Assembly: GCF_964355755.1 (NCBI RefSeq) | Contig: NC_092677.1 | Span: 9,694,101 to 9,758,100 of the forward strand | Length of the DNA stretch: 64,000 nucleotides | Direction: 5' to 3' | Source of the DNA: Antedon mediterranea | Taxonomy: Eukaryota > Animalia > Echinodermata | Shown here: positions 14,295-32,500 of the stretch, piece after piece | How the letters are laid out: each line of letters starts with the position of its first letter | Numbering within the stretch: the first letter of the stretch is position 1 | Program-made: the position numbers and the translations under genes | Notes under the pieces: model-generated | Told to the model about the DNA's origin: nothing | The model's input: the letters and a program-made list of their open reading frames with translations, nothing else | Databases searched by the model: none

Positions 14295-16889
14295 TCAGGT
14301 GTTGTACACTTTATTATCATGATTCAAAATGCATAGAGCGTACGCGGAAGATGTCGTCACCACGGCATCTGGATGATCACCAGGTTGTCGTGGATAGTCT
14401 GCTGTAATTTCCTCTTTTATGGATGTGCTGTCGTCCGTATTTATTGATTCTAATGCCATACTTAAAGGCCGACTGAGAGGTGAAGCAGCGGACGTTGGTG
14501 TTAGCAAGGTACTAGTGGTATGAGAAGGAGACAACAGTGGCTCGTTCTCCTTCAGACTATCTGGAGATGTATCTGGAGAACGTTGTATTTCAGAGTCTAT
14601 ACCACGCCTTACTTGTAGTTCAATATCTCTTTCTGGCTGTGACATCGTTTTATTTGCTGACCCATTCTTATAACTAGGTGCACAACCATTTATTTCTGCT
14701 TGTACAATAAATTTATGTTTTTCTAAATTTGTTTCTTTTGCATAAGTTTTTATTTTATCTGCTTCCGTTATTCCTGCAGCAGGTATTACAATGAATAAAT
14801 TATCCAGTTCTTTTTTTGTGCATTCCTCATTATTGTTCAAATGAGAAGACAATGTTTTTGTAGCATCAGTGTTTGTATGTGGCATTCTCTTTGAATCGGT
14901 AACTGCTTGGTCGGTTTCTCGGTCGTACCGAACAGATGGCATATTGTCAGGATTAACGTCCGTTTCTGAAACTCCTTGTAATGTCTCATCCGGGACACCG
15001 ATTGTGTGGTCCACTTGCTCCAACCATTCTTGAACGGTCTTTTGGTAATCCGGTCTTCCATATGGTATCCCATCGACTGGTTTTGGGTATTGGCGCCGAT
15101 ACGATGATTTAGCTTCTGTTTCGCTACACTTAGACATCGGATTGACAGTTCTTCTGTACCGTCTGCAACACAAGGCAGTATTTGTGGCGGAACACGTGCC
15201 ATGGTGATCACATTGATCTGGGCAGAGCAACTTAATGGCAACGGACAGAGCGTAACTAAATATTGCCGCAAAAACGGTAATGAGGATAGTAGAAGCTGCC
15301 GGTGGAATATCATAAAAGAAGTGTTGGCTAGAAGTGTCATCATCAGATGTCTTGACCGTCGCTGGTGGTGAGGTTGTAACCACAGTAGTTACCTGTACAC
15401 TAACGCTAATGATGGTTGGTGCTGTAAAGAAATATAAACTGTTAATACTTTGACATCAAATAGATCCTTTGTTAAAACGACCTACTAATATTAGGTATAG
15501 TCCCGTGTTGAATTATTTATTATTATTTATTATATTTTTTTAATTAACAGTATCCTTCTTTCGTACATTAATGCAAGACACGGTCTTTCTTTCTTTCACC
15601 TACCTGCCCTAACTGTCCGGATCTGTAATAATAACATCGATAGGACAAAGCACAGTGTCCGTACAGTTAACTGATGTTTTAAGGATGGCACGGCGTTGTC
15701 TTGCATCGATACACCAGACTTCTAATTGATATCTGCAGGTGCATCCTCTGCAGCACCGTAGCAAGTTATGACCACACTTGTATTCTAAAAAAAGTAAAAT
15801 TTAATTTGCATATAAAGGTGTATGAGAAAATAGCGATTTCTAGTGTGCCTGCATTTCGAGTTGACTTGCCTTGTATTGTTTGACTATGGACTTGACCATG
15901 GACCTATAAGTTATAGGTTTAATACAATGTAGGAATCAATTAATCGAATTTTATGAAGCTATAATATGATCTATATAATATTCTTCTATGAAAATAACCC
16001 TACAACGTGGAAAATTAGTTGGGGACTGCTATCGTGGAAATACGAAGGACTGTACATTTTTGTTGTTTAGACGAGTTGCCCATGATGAACAGGGTAAGTA
16101 AAGTTTATATTTGTAAAGCGACAACAGCCTATAGCAGACATTGTATTTTAAACTGTTATTCATATGAAACAGGACCTTCTTATATTATACATACTCAATA
16201 AATTAAATATGCCTATATAGACGCCAGTGTGTTGATGATGATTATGGATCGACAAATATGATTACCAATCTTTAATTATATCACGATGTCGTGTATTTAT
16301 TTGAATGCTTAGAGCATGGAGAAATGGGTACTAGCCTCCATGCTTAAATTGATTGACTTTTTAAAGTTAGTTCATGAAACTCGGTTTCATGAAAAGCCAG
16401 CAAATCACGGTACTTTTTTTCTATTCTTACCTGTTGGTCTAAGTTGGTTTACATCACATCTCAGAACTTAAATAATCGCAATGAATCGTTTATTACATAA
16501 TGTAGGCCTGTAACAAATCTCCATCAAATATTCGTAGGCCTAAAATTACAGGTACCCAATTCACAGCAGCGGTTCACCTAAGTTTGCATAGTTACTTTGT
16601 TTTGCCCTCTACTAAAACAGCTCCTTTGAGACGTAAATTAAATTTGCATGACAGTCGCAAGGGTCGAACCAAGAAGGCTTTTGTAATGTCTGTTAATCCT
16701 TGAAATACATGAAAGGATGTTTTGACAGTCTATTATGCAGTGAACATTCTGAATTGATTCCGTAAGTCCCATCACTATGGTATGAAAAGAGTATTGTAAA
16801 TAAGATAAGATAAGATAAGATAACTTTTATTGATCCTCAAAAAGGAAATTCATTATTAAATTATATTTACCGTGAATTTTTGTGGTCAT
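14295..16889 (-). CDS. Orphan single-pass membrane protein (~450 aa if the 5' exons are right): Cys-rich TNFR-like N-terminus, Thr-rich stalk, TM helix, long low-complexity tail
   Basis: Large terminal exon 15421-14295 contains the 362-aa ORF with TM segment STILITVFAAIFSYALSVAI. Phase-1 exon 15784-15614 encodes YKCGHNLLRCCRGCTCRYQLEVWC...NCTDTVLCP. Tentative upstream exons are 16466-16431 and 16889-16871 (ATG). All phases are compatible, but the two 5' exons are less certain. Confidence 0.65.
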
Positions 16890-18852: not shown

Positions 18853-21800
18853 CTAATGACAGTTCTGGCAATTTGGCCGACAAAGACGGCCATTTTCTCT
18901 ACAATGACATCCTCCTGATTTGTCTCCCCTGCCCTAAAAATAAAAATATAACATACAATTATCAATGCTGTTTGGAAGTTTTATATTTTTATTGATTTTT
19001 ATATACAGTACTTGTAATCTACACACAATTCAATTTTTATTGCAAAGAGTGCGAATTAAAAGCTATATAATAGAAGTAGAAGTTATTGTTGGTTAGTAAT
19101 TAGTGAACAATCTGTATGTTTTGGTAAAGAGAAAACAAATGTACTAAAGAGTGCACATGTCTTTTGTACAACTGGTTAAATATCAACCTGATAGGCTTGG
19201 CTCATTGGTAGTAAGAAAACCTGCATTGTCCCAACATTTTTCAAGAACATACATATGGTGTGCTACTTGGCCACTGACATATTAACTTAGCTATAATGAA
19301 TGCATAGTGTCCACTCACATTTGGACCCCATCTTGGTCCCTTAGTGACCCAGCATATTTCAGTCTTGCACATGGTACATCTCACCCAATCACAACCGTCC
19401 TTCTTCTGTACAATGATCTTACATTTTGGACAGTGCATGGCGTCTCCATTTCTAACCATTTCCTAAAAATCAAAACATACAATTTTAAATTTGATTTTTT
19501 TCATCAGTAATTTGATCTGTCTTGTACAGGGAAGTAGTGGAGGATCCAAAATGTTATAAAGAAGGAGCCCAGGCCCAACAATGGTACAATGACGTGATTA
19601 ACTAAACCTAATGTTCTATCTTCTGTATTGCAGATTTCAATATTTAGTGGGTCCCTGGCCAGCTTTTTTCCCTCTTTGGATCTGCCTATAGGAGATGACA
19701 CCAAGGAGTTGAACAAAAAATGTTTGGTAACAATAGCTACACTTACTACTATACTTTAACAATCATTTAGGAAAATGTAAACTCACACTGTACAAATAGT
19801 AATCATTGTATTTTTGTCAAGCACCATCATAGAAGGGAAGGGGGGGGGGGGGAGGAGCGGTGGTACACAAGCAGATACCATACCATGGTGTTATTGTAGG
19901 ATATCATGGACAGGTTTACATATTTGATTTCACTGTGTGGTTTGAATAGACCTCCCTCTCACTGTTTGATTTGAGCAGCAACTTGCAACTTACATCCAGC
20001 ATCAATTGTGTTTGCTTAGCTGCTTTATCATTCATAGCATTTATTTGCAACGAATCCTGATATTCTTTACAGTTCATTCCTTCGTGAATGGCTTTACACG
20101 TCAAACAGTTGCTCTTTCCGCAGATCGGGCAAGGGAAGAAGTTGACGTCGTCTTCGTATATGCACCAGCCATGACAGTCCACGGTCTTACAATGGAAACT
20201 GTTGCCTGCTTGAGTCTCGGCAGTTGCGAGGCAACGCTGCAGGTGTTTTTGATATTGCTCATTGTCAACAAGCTGAAAAAAGTAAGTAATTCTGTATCAT
20301 TCTAAGATCACACAGAATAATAATACACATGTCTTATATAAGTCAAAGATGCTCTTCAGGTGGATGCCATCCTCAAATCAGTAGTAGTAATTAATACAAT
20401 TGTTTGTTTTTTTTATTAATGTATACGTTTACTTGTTATGGCCCAGAGATCCCGAAATAAAAGATTAAATAAATAAATATATATCTGTTTCATTTGTATT
20501 TTTAATATTTCCACTTACTGCTCTGATTTCGCGGTCTTGGATTAAAGCTTCGCAAGAAAATTCATTGTCCTGAAATGGACACTTGATTTCAGGTTCTTCA
20601 CAGACAGAAATATGTCCTGTTAGACAGTCTCTAAAAATGTAATCAAATTAAACAATGAATAAAATAAATAAATTAATAGTTTGCCAGTCATTTCATTCAC
20701 TACTGTATATACATTTATTTATCACCCCTAATTTAGGAAATCTAAGTGGTCCTCCAACGCTGGAGGCCTCTGCCATTCTTAGCCATAGCCTCAAGGGCCT
20801 CATAAGCTCTGGGGCCCTGTGTTTAACCATGGAGTAATAATTATTACTCAATGATTTAACCATTGAGCGCTCATAACCATTATGCCACTGGTTGTTAATG
20901 ATAACTATAAGTGAATTCATTAATTATCCTTCTTGAAATTGTCAACCCTTTTCATAGAACAACTATTAATACAATATAGAGAGTACTCAACACATATAAA
21001 ATCTAGTCTTTGTGAGTGGAGTGGTTTTTCATGAGAAATGATTCCGAAATCCAACCGACTTTGAACCCAGGACATTGGGATCAAAACCAATCATATTAAC
21101 CACAAAACTTTTAACTTCTGTAATCTTACTTGCAAAACGAGTGTAGGCATTCCCGCAGAGTGATGCCTTCTCCAGCGTCAAAGTCATCGTAACATATCAA
21201 GCACGTAAAAGCTTCGTTATTTGGTATTACGTCCAACTGGTCGTATTCTTGCAGACGCTCAAAATTTAAGACAGCTGCCTGTCGATCGGCTTCCTTTATC
21301 TATTTTTCAAAATATTTTACATCAATATAAATTATTTTTTAAATCAAATTTCTGTCCCTTCAATCTCAAAATATACAGCAGACAAGATGATTTAATTTTA
21401 CATTAAAAAAACAGGCAAAAAAAAAATACACTATGTAAACTACACAATTTCATTTGCTTTTAAAGTTATTTTTTATTTTTGCTGTTTTGTTTTTGTCTAA
21501 TAAACTGCTTCATACAACAAACGCATAATCATGCACCGTATTACAATAATGTGGTATTTATATTATTATCTAATTTTACAACTACACTTTCAATGATTTT
21601 TTTTTTCTTAATGGAATGTTAATTCTCCCAAATTTGATAAAATATCAACAACTTAATCAAGTATCATTTATTATCATTTTAATATTAATATTTAATATTA
21701 ATATTTAATATTAATTTTACAGGAATAGAAGAAATTCTAACCCATGGGCAGATCCACCTTAAATTTCGCAAAATCGTAATGCAAAAGACAGGACATCAAA

Positions 21801-24800
21801 TTAAGCCCAGCCCTTCATTTGACTATTTTTAGGCCCTGGATCCACCACTGTAACCCACCTAGTTATATAGAAAGTATATACAGTATTATATAGGGCATAG
21901 AAAAAGACCGAGATGCATGCTACAGGTTGGACATTAAAAGCCGGGTACAAATTTGTCATTCTAAGCATGTTACATTACTATTACTGCACTGTATAACAAA
22001 CTCTCAAACAAAAAGTTTAAAGAACGTTTTATTTATAATAATATTAACCGATACATAACTTTACAATAATGTTATTTATACAACATACACTAAATGATCT
22101 GGCAAAAAAAGTACCGCTTGTTGTAAACCTAATTTTAGATTAATGATGACACAAAATAAATAAAAACTGCAGCCCCATAAAGCTGTAACACCTTATCGAC
22201 TCATTTACGAAATATATACATGCGCAATTTGTAATTTCTCTAACTTTGCTGTAATATAGTTTTGTTTCACTTTTGTGTTACTTTTTTAAAACTTGTTGTC
22301 AATATTTTTATTTAAAAGTTATTTTCTTCCTCTTGGAACGATATAAGTGGTTGAGGTTCAAACACCAGCCCGTCTCCTCCTCCCACTAGTAACCCAGACC
22401 CTTGCAGATCATCCTAAAAATAAAAAAATAATTTAGTTCTAATTTTGAAATTTGTATTTTATTTAGTTTTGATATTAGAGGATAAAGGGTGTAGGAGGAG
22501 GACGGACTGAGCATTTAAACCAACTAGAAGAGAAGAAACACCTAAATTTGAGCTTACTCTTTATTACCAGAAAGTTACTTCAATAGTTCTCAGCAATTTG
22601 ATAAATAGCTTTAGCAATTCATCGAAGTTTGACACAAAGCGCGCAGTAAGCTGAATAGTGATACTTTGTTAGCCGGTTTGAGATCCTCTACTAAAGAATG
22701 ATCTTACAATTTTGACCATAAAGATATTTTAATTTTTTAGGCACTTACCTGTTTTATAACATCTTCATGTTGTTTTTCTTCTTCTATTAGCCGTTTCTCT
22801 ACCGCATCCAACTCGTACGAACCAATCGGCGGTAGCACATAGTTATCCGGTCTCGGGTTTGTACACATGTGACAGCTTGGTCTACGAGGAGCATTTACCA
22901 TCGTACAGACTTCACAGTGCCAGCCGACCTGACAAGAGAAAGTTACATTACTAGAGATGTGTCAATGTATGTAATATTGTTAATGTAAGTACAAGTAGAA
23001 AGAGTGCCCTCGATAAATTCCATTTTGTCAGACACTATAGGCTGGATATACTGTACAGTGTACTCCACAGTCAGTAATGGCGATATTCCAAGAACGATAG
23101 TTAGATCATGCGTATATGGAGGTAATGATGCAGGTATATATACTATCATTTTGAATAAGAGAGAGGATGGCCATTGAAATAATGAGATAGATTTGAAAGA
23201 CCTTCCAAATAGTACTTACATCCAATGCAGATTTCTTCCCTAAAGCAGAGGGCAAGACTGGCTCTTTATTTTGCATAACATCTCTGACAACTTTCTGAAC
23301 ATTTTCAAAGGGAACATGTTGTCTGCGTGGTTGAAAACCAGGCCTGGGAGCAGGCTTAGGCCGAACACTAGCCAAACTAGAAGCAACTTGTATTGAATCA
23401 TCTATCAAGTTTTCGGCTACTTCTGTGTAAGAAAAATATAGTAATTTTATAATATTCTACACAATAGTTGTTGAGACATCCATAAGAAAAAGTTGAGAGC
23501 AATTTATTCATTTTCCAATTCTTATTCATTAAATACTAACCAGGATTTTGAATAGCGTTTCTTGGTGCTTCTTCTTTTTGTGTTAAATAAAGAAAGACCA
23601 TGTATCCTGATTGGTCAATGCTTAACGCTTGTAACGTTTCATCATCCCTCACAATTCGATGGCCCACAATCCATCTTTGAACTTCTGGTGGAAAATTGTA
23701 ATCTGTATGCATCTGTAAAAAAAATAGTACAGTAGTTAGAGAGAGATTGTCAATGGAAGATATTGCTGTTATCTATGTATGCACCACATAGGTGCTTGAT
23801 ACCCGTAAACTGTTGATTTACAGTAGCTGCACTTGGGTAGTTGAGTGGTTTGGTGGTTTGCCTCCAATCCCAAGGTCCAGTGTCCAATACTAGGGTTTTA
23901 ACTTTATGGCTACAAACACAAATGTGTTTATTCATCACATTATATAACCAACTGTTTCTACTCCACTCACTAAACATCAAATTAGACTTTATTTTATAAA
24001 CATTATACAGTTTATCCATGTTGTAACTGGTATAATGTGTATGAAATAAAAAATGGGACAGAGGTAAAGTAATTAAACTAGTTGATTACTTTACTACTAT
24101 GGGTTGATATATCTATTTCTTTATACAGCCTATTGACTACTAAGTGACTGTTTGTTTTGTTTGTTTCTACCATTCACCCTCAGTTGATGAAATTCAAATT
24201 AAGATTCTCCACCGACCCACTGCATAAATAGTGTCCGTCAACAATGAGCAACAGGGGCTAAGTAGTAAGATGGAACAGGGATAATACTCTTCTGAAAGAT
24301 GCTTGGGTTCTTTATTAATTTATAGTGCATACGAGCCAGACATGTACTCTGAAGTTTTAAGTTCACTTGAACAACCAGAACCATTAAACCATACTGTTTA
24401 TATTTTTTATTTTACTGTGCTTTTTGTACAATGTGTTTTTGTTTATGTTGTCAATTTGATATAGGCCTATATATTATTTCTGCAACTCTTTGTGCTGCTA
24501 TAGTCATAATATTTGTTTTAATTTATTTATGTTGAAATATATATACTTGCCTTTTCTTTTAATGACTTAATTGATATTGATGGCTTAACCTTCAAAGTTA
24601 TTTTTATTGATGATTTAAAACGATCTTCAACTGAAATCCTAAGACTGAAAAAAGAAGCAATTGGAAGTGGATGTTTAACATTAATATCAATAAAGTAAAT
24701 TGTATTATGGCCTGCCTGTATGTTTTTTTTTTCCTTTTTCCATGTTGGTGAAGTGCTTTTCTTTATTCACGATCTGCACATTTTGATCAGGATGTGATTT

Positions 24801-27800
24801 TGTTTAAGAGTATTAAAGAGTTCTGTTTGATTCAGAATTCAAACTAAAGCTCTGTCTACACTATCAAAAAAAGTGTTATGTGCCCAAATGTAGAATTGAT
24901 ATGCCCAAATATGGTAGTGATATGACATCAGCACATCCATATAGGCACTTCACATTTTGTTGTCACATACAATTTGATAGTGTAGTCAGAGCCTATTGTA
25001 CTTGTTTTATGAGGAACAACTTTTCTTCACAAATATCCAATTTATGGGAATTTAACATTGAAAAAGGTTAGTAAACTAACTTGATCCTATTATCAGTCTT
25101 TGTGATGTTTGTTGTATTTGCAGATTGGCTAACAGCTAAACAAGCCTTTTCTTGTGCTAGTCTCTTTGCAATTTCTCCAGCCTTTTGTTGATCACCTTCA
25201 TTAATGCTGACCATCAATTCCTTTGCAAGAGAGTCTGTAACATTTAAAGAAAGAAATTCATTAAAAAAAAATTAGGGTTGATAAAGCATTGATCCTTAAA
25301 CAAGGAACCAGTTATTAAAATCTACTGTAGGGACCACTGACTTATTTACTGTTACCATACAAAGGCAATGAAAAGTCATAATACAAATTGGTCAGTTTAA
25401 CATATCTATTCTGGATTATTTACCCACAGCATTGTCATTTTTTTTCAGTAATTTGCCTTTTGATTTATAAAAATATTAATGTTTTAAATTAAAATATTAA
25501 GAATTTTCTTTATTTTGTGGCGAAAAAAAATCTCTAAACTATTCAACTAGAGTAGGAAATTAAAGTTACACAGTATAATATTTTTTCATACCTAATAGTT
25601 CGCCTTTCCCCGATGACGAGTCTCCACCACTGATGTGCCGCTGTGCAGCCATCTCGACGTGACTCCTCTCAAAAGCTATAAATAAGGTTGTAGTAATCAG
25701 ATTTAATGTACAATCATTAAATTACAGTACATTAGAGTAGAATTCCTATTAAGGGGACACCTTTGGGACCTATCAAACTTTCCTTTTAAAAGGTGGGTGT
25801 CCCCTGTATAGGGTCGTAGTATTTGACCGAGAATAATCCCATGCCCAAGTATAATCCCACCCCTAATCACTATGTCTCTATGTCCTACAAACTTTAGGTT
25901 TATTGGGTAAATCTATGCAATCCACCCAAATATAATCCCACCCAAAGTTCATATCCAGGCCCCCTGGGACTATATTCGGTCATGTACAGTTTGTGCTCTA
26001 CAGTAATGAACATGAACAGAATCATACAATGTACACAGTAGGCCAATTTTAGTATTAACAATTACGGTATAAATCAGGATAATACTGTATTAACATAATT
26101 GATACAATACTATGATATGAACTGCAACTACCTCTTAAATAAAATTGGACAAACCTGAATTTAAAATACTAAAAACTTTTGGACACCAGGGTTGAATTTA
26201 CTTAACAAAACTCAACATAACTGTGAATCCTTCACTGTCTTTCAACCAAATGCTATGATTAGAATCGATATACAAATTTACATTGTTGGAAATTCCCTAT
26301 TTTAATTCTGGACTTTCCCTTCAAAGTAACTGAATATGTTATTAGCATAACAATGAGAATGCCCCACCAGTATTCGATTGCTAAGAATCAATCAATTTCT
26401 TTTGTGCTGTTATGATATGAAATATATTTCCTTCCTGGTATGTCTGACATAATTTTACTATAAAAATGGGTTGAATTTGTCAAATGACTTGATACCACAC
26501 ATGACATTTTGCAATTTGGTGACTAAGTTTTATTCCAGTCTCATGACAGGAACTAAATTGGGCAGGATATACGTAGGGAATCACCTACTCTTCAAAAATG
26601 CTATTGTGTATTTAACTATTTAAAAGTCCTTTTGAATAAATTGTAACATTCATGCAGATATAACTTATTTCAAGTTAGCCCAAGAGAGATTCAGAATTTA
26701 GAAAACAAGGGGAAGATATGTTGTACAGTAACTCCCTAACCCTAAACTCACTTCAACCTGTAATGTGATATACAATGAGGGTTCATAGATCATATGTAAC
26801 TAAAAGTTAAAGATGCATTGTCCCGCTGAAAAAATAGCTTAAAAAATAATTTGTTGAATATGTCATTTCAATATCAAATAATAGTTATCCACTAAGACTA
26901 AAATTGGATATAAACAAAATTATTTACCTGCAAATATAGTCAAATTGTCTACCAGCCAATGGGTTTTTGGTTGAATTTAACCATATATTTTTTCATTTTA
27001 TAAGTGAAAACATTTTTTGTTAAAGTGATTAAATTTATTAAAACTACAAAATAAGCTATTAAAAATCTGATTTAATTAATCTTCATTTTTCATATTTTTG
27101 GGGGACAATACATCTTGCTATGCTCTACCTGATTTCCTCTGTTCATGCGTCGCATTGCCAAGCAATGTTCCAAAGTTTGAGGCGTCCGTAACTTTCTCAT
27201 ATTCCATTTGATATTGCTTCTTATCAGGTAATATAAATTCATGAACGGAGCCACTAACCACCTTGAAACTTAGGCTAGACATGGGTGAGTAAAGAAGTAC
27301 CTGAAATGCAATATTCATTTTATTCTATCTGAATTATTTCAAAATTTACGATATTTTTTTCCAAGATGAAAAACAATGATTTAAATCACCACGAATACCA
27401 GTCTATGGTTATTGAAAATAAAATAAATAAAATCTTTGTAAATAAAAGATTTACAATTTAGCATACAAGGATCACGTTATTGCATTATTATGCTAGACAC
27501 GCTGCCACACAGGTGTAGTGGCAGGTGACCGAGTAGGCGCGGGCATGATTTGAAACTGTCATATCTTATTGGCTGAAGTGTTGCAGGCATGTCTCTGCTC
27601 CCTCTCTATTTTTTAATGCTTTAATACTAATTGGAGTAAACACAATTACTATTATTATAACAATTACATTTTTTAAAACTGTACTAACACTTTTGTCATG
27701 TACTGCTTTCAGTACAAAGCCTTTTGATACATCTAGAAACTGTAATACACATGGTGCAATTCGGATCCACCCTTTTGCATCATGATTAAGATAAAGCACA

Positions 27801-27841
27801 CCAGGAGCAGATCCGAGAACACTATATTCTTCATCAAGCAT
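18853..27841 (-). CDS. RBCK1: SHARPIN/RBCK1 (HOIL-1)-related LUBAC subunit: PH-like, LTM, UBL, NZF, RING1-IBR-RING2; 665 aa
   Basis: 13 in-phase exons: 27841-27689, 27300-27129, 25675-25592, 25234-25081, 24644-24551, 23712-23541, 23422-23220, 22928-22749, 21299-21130, 20630-20519, 20272-19994, 19462-19319, 18933-18853 (1998 nt). Motifs: [26 protein letters not shown]; [24 protein letters not shown]; [23 protein letters not shown]; RING1 [13 protein letters not shown]; RING2 [28 protein letters not shown]; C-terminus GGCHC...CQNCH, as in HOIL-1. Confidence 0.93.
22312..22413 (-). CDS. Candidate alternative terminal exon after the NZF exon, giving an RBR-less SHARPIN-like isoform of 437 aa
   Basis: Strong polypyrimidine acceptor (TATTTTTTTATTTTTAG). 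Phase 0 matches the NZF-exon donor at 22749. The 33 GC-richer codons read [33 protein letters not shown], then TAA, with an overlapping AATAAA (22312-22307). Confidence 0.6.
   Translation of the reverse strand, partial: DDLQGSGLLVGGGDGLVFEPQPLISFQEEENNF
24848..24993. mobile_element. Tourist-like MITE family D copy
   Basis: Left TIR AGCTCTGTCTACACTATCAAA, degenerate right TIR. Confidence 0.7.
26288..26319 (-). promoter_or_regulatory. Pair of consensus NF-kB sites in the intron after the PH-domain exons of the SHARPIN/RBCK1 gene
   Basis: GGAAATTCCC at 26288-26297 (reverse complement GGGAATTTCC) and GGACTTTCCC at 26310-26319 (reverse complement GGGAAAGTCC). Confidence 0.5.
26811..27115. mobile_element. 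Kolobok-like MITE family B copy
   Basis: TTAA|AGATGCATTGTCCC...GGGGACAATACATCT; internal sequence shared with other copies (ATAGTTATCCACT, AAAACTACAAAAT). Confidence 0.7.
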
Positions 27842-29508: not shown

Positions 29509-32500
29509 ATGAAGCTTTTAGACAATTCAAAACTTGAAGCAATCAGTGAAGCATTGACAGTGGAGACTGGTGATTGTAAAATTTCTGGAAAGTATGTACA
29601 TTTCTGTATTCTATAAATTTCTTAATAATACAATAATCAATTATATATTTTTAACCTTAAAACTACAGTCAGTATATTGAGTAACCTAATTTGTAATTCC
29701 ATTTCCATCTATACTATTTTTCTTCCTTTGGCATTGTACACTGTTGCAGTGACAATACTGAATGCCTATCCATCATAATGTAAATTTTTAAAGCTAAATT
29801 TAAGTTTTTATTATAAAGAATTGTTATTAAATATTATAAATTTGATATAATTAGAAATATGAATTTCTTAATTGAAGTATTTTTAATTTTGCAGAGTGGA
29901 AAGCTATTCCTGTAAGATGGCCGGTAACGATAAGCGTTTATACAAGATGATAAGCAGTGAGAACGGTCAGTCACCAAACGATTTGCAGGCGTTGTCACCT
30001 CCTCAGTCAGGCTTTCATCTCGGCCCAGGTCAAATTTTAAGCACCAGCAGTAGCAGCGGAGGAGAGGAAACAGGCCCACTGTGTCACACCTGTAGTCGTA
30101 GAATGATATACTACCTCATAGCAACGCTAAATGCTTCCTTTCATCCCGACTATGATTTCAGGTGTGTTGCTGTGCCTACTGGTATAATTTTTTGTGTTAA
30201 AATTGGAATGTCGTTTGTATAACTTTAATAGTTTGCATTGTGCTAAACACTAAATTCTGGAAATGTATAAAATAAATAAATTCTTGTATCACCTTTAGCA
30301 AAGGTGATACAAGAATGTTGGTGATACAACTTCAATTATCACTTTCTGATCGGTTTAACCATAGAGATATTATATAGCACTATAATATCTCTATGGTTTA
30401 ATCATAGAGATATTATATAGCACTATATCTCTATGGTTTAATCATAGAGATATTATATAGCACTATATCTCTATGGTTTAATCATAGAGATATTATATAG
30501 CACTATAATATCTCTATGGTTTAATCATAGATATATTATATAGCACTATAATATCTCTATGGTTTAATCATAGAGATATTATATAGCACTATATCTCTAT
30601 GGTTTAATCATAGAGATATTATATAGCACTATATCTCTATGGTTTAATCATAGAGATATTATATAGCACTATAATATCTCTATGGTTTAATCATAGAGAT
30701 ATTATATAGCACTATAATATCTCTATGGTTTAATTTTGAAACGATTGTTTTCATAGTATAAAATAGAAAATGAAAAATTTGATTTTTTTTATCTAGTGAT
30801 GCGAAAAGCAGTGAATTCAGCAAAGAGCCAAGCTCAAACTGGATAATGAATGCAGTTGACAGTAATCTATATTCTGTCCTTGGTGATATGTATGCTGGGC
30901 TTAAAACCAAGCTATGGTCTGCCATTAATGATGAGATTGTTCTCAATGAATGCGAGATATACAGGTAATTATTGTTTATTAAGGTTAAAGTGGTTAACAA
31001 GAAAATAAAAAAAAAATTTAAGAGGAAACCGCAGAACATTTTCTTTGCAATATATTTTCACCTACAGTATCACCCACCCTACAGAAGGATTGAAAAGCCT
31101 CTATATAATAACCAAACAGTACTGTAAAACCATGGACCTATAAATTTATAGGTACATGGTAAAACAATCTTCCTACCCACACCCATACTCTTCACAATAC
31201 ATAATATTCAAATTAACAACTTTATTAATTATGAATGCCATAGACATTTAAAATCTATTGTATGATGTTCACACTTGTCAATTTTAGATAAAGAAATAAT
31301 TGTAAAGTACAACTCAACTCAATCATTTTTAAGTTTTCTATATTATAGTGTTTTGATTCTGGGTTGTCATGAATTATATTTAACTAATTTTGACTTTTTT
31401 TCTTGCATGTTTAGTTACAACACAGATCTTGAATCGGATCCATTTGGTGAAGAGGGTGTTCTCTGGTCGTTTAATTACTTCTTCTACAACAAGAAGCTGA
31501 AGCGGATTTTATTTGTTACATGTAGAGCCACCAGGTATCCATTTTAATACCCATTGTGTTTTGTGTCCATTGTTGTGTGTAAACTTCCATTTGTGTTGCT
31601 TAACTTTGATATTTAATAGATGCTTTGTTGTTTTGGTCCTGTATTTTAAAACAACAATGACCATAGTACATTTATAGGATAGTCGATTTAATTTTAACTA
31701 ACTAAATTATTTATTTTTAATTATTTACTGCTAGTCAAAGTTCTTACTGCAACTAGCCGTTGTCCCTATATTTATTTCCTTTGTTTTATATGCTTGTACA
31801 TGTTAGCTTAATGAAAGAATGTAATAGAATTTTAAAATTTATTTTTGAGTCTGAATAAAAAATAAAATATGCCTACTAAAACTTCAATATAATGCAGAAA
31901 TATTATTGTATTGTACACAAATTCATTAATTCAATAATAATAATAATAATGGCCGTTTATATGCATAAGATATATAATATATGTATAGTTAAACAACTTG
32001 GGACAACGGTGTTATTGTAAATAGTGCAAATATAATCTTAGCATAGTATATTTTAGTAATGACTTGATGGTAAATTGTCTGTACTGTACATGATACTTCT
32101 CCATACGACTGGCACCTTGGCGAGGTGGAGAAGCTTGTGAATCTCAATGATCTGTAGAGCTATGCCGGCGGTAGCCTAGCAAGCTACTGGTAGGGTCACC
32201 CATGCCGGACAGGTCGCACAGTTAGAGGTCAGACAAAGTCCAGTCTTAAGAGGTCTTCACAAAATGATCTGTAGAGCTGTGTTGGGACTACTGTAGCTTT
32301 AAGTAAGGTACTGGGGTCACCCATGTGAGATTGGTTTTTTTTCTAAAGCTCTGTCTACACTATCAAACTAGACAAAAAAGTGTGATGTGCCTAAATATGG
32401 TATTGATATTGCCATACTGTACATGGTAGTGATACATCATGTTCATATGTATGGGCACATAACATTTTTCACATCTAATTTTATAGTGTAGACAAGGCTT

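Follow-up and report, generated by a model that had tools for sequence, protein, structure and literature searches.

A probable alternative last exon following the NZF in a HOIL-1/SHARPIN-type gene of the feather star Antedon mediterranea

In vertebrates two genes encode the helper subunits of LUBAC, the linear-ubiquitin enzyme complex. The single gene described here likely supplies both a ligase-bearing and a ligase-less partner through the choice of its last exon. Such a locus would be a route between the states described for fly and mammals, HOIP acting alone in the fly and LUBAC being a three-gene complex in mammals (PMC12778051). The sequence is from the crinoid Antedon mediterranea, and the window, to which all positions refer, is the whole analysed stretch of 64,000 nt (NC_092677.1, 9,694,101-9,758,100).

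Gene structure and domains

The gene lies on the minus strand, and its 13-exon coding model translates exactly into the RefSeq X1 protein of 665 aa; the NZF exon gives a 100% match to an Antedon mediterranea protein. The long form has the architecture PH-LTM-UBL-NZF-RBR. The features are:

27689..27841, minus: coding exon 1, first half of the PH domain, ATG at 27841 (RefSeq X1 match; predicted fold)
27129..27300, minus: coding exon 2, second half of the PH domain (Pfam Sharpin_PH E=0.11, under the cut-off; profile)
25592..25675, minus: coding exon 3, with the ATG at 25652 of the PH-less RefSeq X3
25081..25234, minus: LTM exon (Pfam LTM E=1.4e-4, under the curated cut-off; PDB 5Y3T chains A and C)
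24551..24644, minus: first UBL exon, its donor being GC (GC-AG intron; matched by the loose end of an RNA contig)
23541..23712, minus: second UBL exon (RNA joint 23541>23422; Pfam ubiquitin)
23220..23422, minus: linker exon (RNA joints)
22749..22928, minus: NZF core and HOIL-type NZF-tail helix, last shared exon, with a phase-0 donor (Pfam PF00641; RNA branch point)
22312..22413, minus: alternative last exon, coding part, 33 codons and TAA (RNA joint, translation, chance test)
22307..22312, minus: AATAAA that overlaps the stop codon (the RNA contig continues past it)
21481..22311, minus: 3' UTR of the alternative exon, 831 nt or more (one 963-nt contig)
21455..21477, minus: likely poly(A) signal AATAAA at 21477-21472, CA at 21456-21455, then GU-/U-rich tracts (sequence)
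21130..21299, minus: RING1 exon, first of the long (RBR) route, with a weak purine-rich acceptor (RNA joint 22749>21299)
20630-20519, 20272-19994, 19462-19319 and 18933-18853, minus: remaining RBR exons, stop TAG at 18855 (RefSeq X1 match)

The RBR matched the HOIL-1L RBR in the PDB with E=9.7e-100, and the best PDB match of the NZF exon was the HOIL-1L NZF (3B08), spanning both the core and the tail. Against a profile of vertebrate N-termini the PH region scored 15.2 bits, the highest of 500 shuffles reaching 4.8. The predicted structure of the N-terminus contains seven strands and a helix, with pLDDT mostly >90, and its fold matched Homer2 EVH1 (E=2.8e-6, TM 0.79 over 113 columns); the SHARPIN PH structure 4EMO was absent among the structural matches listed. 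The N-terminal domain, as modelled, is a PH superfold, a feature shared with SHARPIN.

The RefSeq cluster of the gene contains three proteins, of 665, 664 and 549 aa, the last being the PH-less X3, and none of the three is RBR-less. A search with the NZF among proteins of 106-2000 aa, in which three candidates were scored, returned only the long form and is weak evidence of absence. The GC-AG intron at 24550-23713 (minus) lies in the UBL coding region and agrees with RefSeq and with the RNA contig. The one glutamate by which RefSeq X1 and X2 differ, at the start of the linker exon (23422/23419, minus), fits a tandem acceptor 3 nt apart. The PH-less start at 25652 (minus) in exon 3 is annotated in Antedon (RefSeq X3) and in a second crinoid, Anneissia (X2). 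Head-to-head with the HOIL-1/SHARPIN-type gene stands a MAF1 gene (29509-31544, plus; Pfam PF09174), the two ATGs lying about 1.7 kb apart. Human SHARPIN has the same head-to-head arrangement with MAF1. In the available text of PMC9884707, MAF1 or 8q24 was not found.

The hidden exon and its transcript

According to the original prediction the intron between the NZF and RING1 exons hides a terminal exon with a strong acceptor, a phase-0 frame of 33 GC-richer codons and an AATAAA overlapping the stop, and all of these features were found in place. The donor after 22749 is GTAAGT in phase 0, and an AG at 22415-22414 opens the 33 codons (22413-22315), which are followed by TAA (22314-22312) and AATAAA (22312-22307). 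The frame is open and continues that of the eight upstream coding exons, with a GC content of 0.45 versus 0.29 in the intron. Scored with a matrix derived from the gene's remaining 13 acceptors, the 22413 acceptor reached 13.6 bits, the top of the 71 AGs in the intron. This is above the leave-one-out score of each of the 13 real acceptors, which range from -0.6 to 11.9 bits, the RING1 acceptor having 2.1. When the intron was shuffled 2000 times with dinucleotides preserved, an acceptor as strong arose in 14 shuffles, together with 33 open codons in one and with GC>=0.45 in addition in none, the thresholds having been taken from the observed exon.

Five sequencing runs cover the region, none of them recorded as RNA, and three were compared, X3 and X5 being left out. 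Run X1 was judged to be RNA from four canonical joints, and the evidence consists of assembled contigs from this one run. These minus-strand joints, each of them GT..AG, are 23541>23422, 23220>22928, 22749>22413 and 22749>21299. The predicted junction 22749>22413 is present in one contig, in which 335 nt are skipped, and in another contig the same donor joins the RING1 exon at 21299. A shared contig stops at 22749 and two contigs carry on from there. Contig depth was 86.6 for the hidden exon, 79.8 for the RING1 route and about 6 for introns; depth is no measure of expression, and neither splice route is a trace. In DNA run X2 a single unspliced contig spans 22282-23899, and the spliced form is missing from the DNA at the locus as judged from this run. 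The RING1-route contig is intact at 21299 and has 736 nt against the 735 expected, and a depth-6 intron contig sits where it ends and the last-exon contig starts. The shared contig, 805 nt long (803 + 2), reaches upstream as far as the LTM exon, leaving the PH exons outside it; the PH-exon contig has a depth of 37.1 versus 112.8 for LTM to NZF, a comparison that carries little weight. The hidden exon is thus real, expressed in one RNA-type run and apparently unannotated.

The 3' end of the short transcript differs from what was proposed. The AATAAA at the stop had been put forward as the poly(A) signal, but one unbroken contig of 963 nt runs from the NZF exon through 22412-21481. Because it continues 831 nt past the stop, reading through this hexamer, the latter is not the main signal, and any use of it would be minor. 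The hexamers at 22033 and 21672 were rejected as signals, both being read through in the contig. The hidden-exon contig ends at 21481, 4 nt ahead of the AATAAA at 21477, after which come CA at 21456 and the GU-/U-rich tracts, and to judge from these motifs the AATAAA at 21477 is the likely poly(A) signal of the short form. As no poly(A) tail was seen in the run X1 contigs, which cannot show ends, and the contig ends at an A-rich tract, termination can only be inferred; it very probably takes place near 21455. Read-through from the hidden exon into the RING1 exon is disfavoured because 21376-21469 has no contig cover and the RING1 contig is intact at 21299, the gap alone proving nothing in a stretch of about 21-25% GC. 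Within the 3' UTR of the short form lies a repeated element (21740-21870), with raised depth at 21752-21845.

Joined to the eight upstream coding exons, the hidden exon gives a product of 437 aa with no internal stop, the size that had been predicted on removal of the RBR; without the PH domain it has 321 aa. The short form diverges after residue 404, within a predicted helix (386-425), 32 residues ahead of the first RING1 cysteine. LTM, UBL and NZF are present and the RBR is absent. The claim that the protein ends where SHARPIN ends is right as to the loss of the RBR and wrong as to the NZF. Past the NZF core the short form keeps 38 residues, among them the HOIL-1L-type NZF-tail helix that mammalian SHARPIN does not have; the 33 new residues of its tail then follow. 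The NZF tail is described as unique to HOIL-1L and in contact with the proximal ubiquitin of linear chains (PMC10511788). By its sequence, then, the short form has a SHARPIN-like architecture and a HOIL-like NZF. As a RING-less splice variant that keeps the UBL and comes from a gene of the HOIL-1 family, it also resembles HOIL-N and RBCK2. There is good reason to expect that it is translated into a stable protein, and a 437-aa form with the PH domain probably exists beside the 321-aa one. A two-copy LTM-UBL prediction made with the alignment unused scored 0.30 against a mark of 0.32 and informs neither way.

RBR-less relatives and phylogeny

A homolog search with residues 1-403 and a cut-off of E<=0.001 found 632 matches; the analysis covered the best 150. 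An NZF motif was found in 139 of these 150, with a RING1 motif after it in 71 of the 139 but not in the other 68. The HOIL-type linker is kept in 54 of the 68 RING1-less proteins from the best 150 of 632. At the junction, 17 of the 54 continue with a valine, one ends and 36 have another tail. The valine cases appear to be mostly intron read-through at GT, which would mark a conserved phase-0 intron. The 36 proteins with other tails are redundant (three from newt, five from one unnamed cluster, three from Biomphalaria) and include exon-skip or doubtful cases (P0048, P0080, P0085, P0164, P0063 and P0089).

The sea-star-like P0040, of 428 aa, extends from PH to NZF with a tail of 25 aa and matches the long form of Asterias rubens at 84%. 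The newt proteins P0028-30 are near-identical to the Pleurodeles long form up to the junction and then differ, and the same holds for Xenopus laevis P0052 and P0025. This pattern suggests that the amphibian short and long forms come from one locus, and the Xenopus pair may be homeologs. RBR-less forms leaving at the same junction are also found in the bivalves and snails Potamilus, Pinctada, Biomphalaria and Plakobranchus, and in P0058, an unnamed mammal-type HOIL-1L protein. The short contigs of the sea-star-like, newt and other short proteins carry the PH domain and the tail in a single frame. Biomphalaria P0198 was rejected as a long/short pair, as it runs through the short tail into the RBR exons and is likely a gene-model artefact. 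The short form was found in neither of the two members of the Anneissia RefSeq cluster.

What recurs in relatives is the use of the same junction; the crinoid tail is not conserved even in the sea star. Across these proteins the position of the junction is conserved and the tail sequence is not. The newt tail matched amniote SHARPIN-type C-termini in four of four comparisons (p<=0.0015) and also matched two of two other vertebrate short tails; P0082 is SHARPIN by its PDB match. The sea-star tail was not among the eight best matches of the crinoid 33-aa tail out of 36 tails (p>0.21). Of the tests of vertebrate against mollusc or sea-star tails, 1/18 fell below 0.05. The top match of the crinoid tail among the 36 was the unnamed P0068, with p=0.001 uncorrected and from the score alone. 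A hydrophobic-hydrophobic-x-hydrophobic core seen by eye as a tail motif common to all animals was rejected, since shuffles gave it no support; a likeness to a clathrin box was equally unsupported by the shuffles. The mollusc-type tails P0042, P0050, P0057, P0065 and P0077 have a common segment (four compared with Potamilus, p<=0.007), which suggests a binding motif of their own.

The phylogenetic tree was built from 34 hand-picked rows over the LTM to NZF core and rooted at the midpoint. Two rows are long, the groups for the AU test were defined with the tree already in view, and several labels on unnamed rows are inferred. Support was 100/98 for the vertebrates, 99/94 for SHARPIN with the fish and amphibian PH-RBR forms, and 87/65 for HOIL-1L, and the echinoderm and mollusc genes fell outside both vertebrate paralogs. 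Grouping the echinoderm gene with the SHARPIN group alone or with the HOIL-1L group alone was rejected (p-AU 0.0005 in each case), as was a clade of amniote SHARPIN and HOIL-1L (p-AU 0.02). The crinoid gene is therefore not a separate gene inside the SHARPIN clade as SHARPIN itself is, and since it has a PH domain its short form is not the product of a PH-less vertebrate RBCK1 ortholog.

Proposed role and origin of the short form

In this one gene, donor 22749 is joined to 22413 or to 21299, the first splice giving a protein without the RBR and the second a complete HOIL-1-type ligase; both splices, the two reading frames and the domain content are observed. The reading preferred here, held with reasonable confidence, is that the short form likely ends near 21455 and likely acts as a SHARPIN-like non-catalytic partner in the HOIP complex. 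The SHARPIN-like isoform of the original prediction gains support from the splice found and from the RBR-less proteins of other animals that branch off at this junction. In such a system the strong proximal acceptor at 22413, with its poly(A) signal far off, would be in competition with the RING1 acceptor, which is weak. The splice ratio would set the number of HOIL-1 RBR domains per complex. The ratio would then tune activity, because the HOIL-1L RBR is reported to dampen LUBAC (PMC12722640). Short and long forms, carrying the same LTM and UBL, would occupy the two accessory seats. In the mouse the LTMs of the two subunits fold together and their UBLs attach to the double UBA of HOIP (PMC6044281), and by analogy it is slightly favoured that the identical LTMs of short and long form pair while their UBLs bind two HOIP UBA sites. 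Combined with the two endings, the PH-less start could give four products from the gene, including a HOIL-1L-like and a SHARPIN-like one.

The short protein, mostly as the PH-less form of 321 aa, might instead regulate the long ligase as RBCK2/HOIL-N would, competing for HOIP, for linear chains or for the LTM of the long form, with no fixed SHARPIN seat. Mouse HOIL-N is such a variant (PMC6044281). The annotated PH-less starts (RefSeq X3, Anneissia X2), the HOIL-1L features retained by the NZF and, weakly, the lower depth of the PH-exon contig (37.1 versus 112.8) agree with this role. It is nevertheless considered unlikely as the whole explanation, as the sea-star-like, newt and other short proteins join PH and tail in one frame and the vertebrate short tail is the one kept in amniote SHARPIN; a regulator role and a SHARPIN-like role are compatible.

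In two further readings the short protein has no such role. The site at 22413 could be an alternative acceptor lengthening the RING1 exon by 1114 nt, with a stop 1182 nt before the next junction, and the transcript would then be a nonsense-mediated-decay target that tunes the ligase level, its contig end at 21481 resulting from the A-rich tract. That end is the last non-A base ahead of the A-run, no poly(A) tail is seen, a coverage hole in a stretch of about 21-25% GC proves nothing, and the crinoid tail is not conserved. However, none of the contigs crosses from the intron into the RING1 exon, the hidden-exon contig is similar in depth to the long route and ends directly beside a canonical hexamer with CA and a GU/U tract, and the homologous short forms finish with stops on short contigs, so that this reading is very improbable. 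Hardly to be expected, too, is recurrent and largely neutral intronic polyadenylation, by which unrelated last exons would arise independently in the phase-0 post-NZF intron and the crinoid one would have no selected function. The hidden exon has the strongest acceptor of the gene and a GC-raised open frame, its contig depth is near that of the main route, and tails are conserved within vertebrates and among four mollusc-type tails against Potamilus (p<=0.007). What agrees with neutrality is that crinoid, sea star, mollusc and vertebrate tails are not significantly alike, and that the short form is found in 0/2 members of the Anneissia RefSeq cluster.

The preferred reading, a SHARPIN-like partner from a HOIL-1-type gene, has a published counterpart. 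For Aplysia californica a separate Sharpin gene was not found, and a HOIL1 isoform without TRIAD (RBR) was proposed as the functional Sharpin analog (LOC101863809, XP_035825204.1; PMC9334734). As in Antedon this is an RBR-less isoform of one gene; unlike it, the case is from a mollusc and, in the available text, rests on domain annotation, with no exon, junction or evolutionary analysis, so that the two are likened by description. The single-gene idea is thus already published there, in one sentence, and Antedon adds a case of a barely described kind. In the open-access literature the echinoderm exon, the shared junction and the link between amphibian tail and amniote SHARPIN were not found; subscription papers or supplements may have them.

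Mammalian SHARPIN resembles the short form in having PH, LTM, UBL and NZF and no RBR, but is encoded by a different gene and has an LTM and a UBL of its own. The HOIL-type tail, which the crinoid short form has, is missing from the NZF of SHARPIN (P0082 aligns to 3B08 over residues 2-41 only). Mammalian HOIL-N/RBCK2 is likewise an RBR-less splice variant of a HOIL-1 gene with the UBL kept, but it comes from a PH-less gene, in minor amount and alongside SHARPIN; mouse HOIL-N may be able to form functional LUBAC (PMC6044281). The fish and amphibian PH-LTM-UBL-NZF-RBR proteins (axolotl 'sharpin' X1/X2) have the full architecture of the Antedon long form, and the newt and Xenopus short forms diverge at the same junction. 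These differ from Antedon in that they belong to the SHARPIN clade and coexist with a HOIL-1L gene, and in a short tail unrelated in sequence to that of the crinoid. The zebrafish protein of this architecture is named shrprbck1r.

Mapped on the tree, these forms can be arranged in a scenario for which the chances appear even. The trimeric LUBAC would be older than the SHARPIN/HOIL-1L duplication, an ancestral gene beside MAF1 having made both subunits by means of a last exon used optionally past the NZF, together with an optional PH-less start. Crinoids, sea stars, molluscs and amphibians would retain this state, and the vertebrate duplication would have divided the isoforms between two genes, amniote SHARPIN being the fixed short isoform. 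That the gene duplicated in vertebrates is likely, one copy dropping the PH (HOIL-1L) while the other kept the PH and, in fish and amphibians, both endings, and later only the short ending (amniote SHARPIN). The locus would then be a case of splice isoforms divided between duplicated genes. The origin of SHARPIN becomes testable by a two-gene reconstitution with Antedon HOIP and the two isoforms. A further implication is that an expressed isoform escapes both the calls of 'no SHARPIN' in invertebrates and the RefSeq model of the Antedon gene.

Downstream on the same strand there is a 386-codon open frame (14295-15455, minus). It has no Pfam match, encodes a hydrophobic stretch and is covered by low-depth run X1 contigs.
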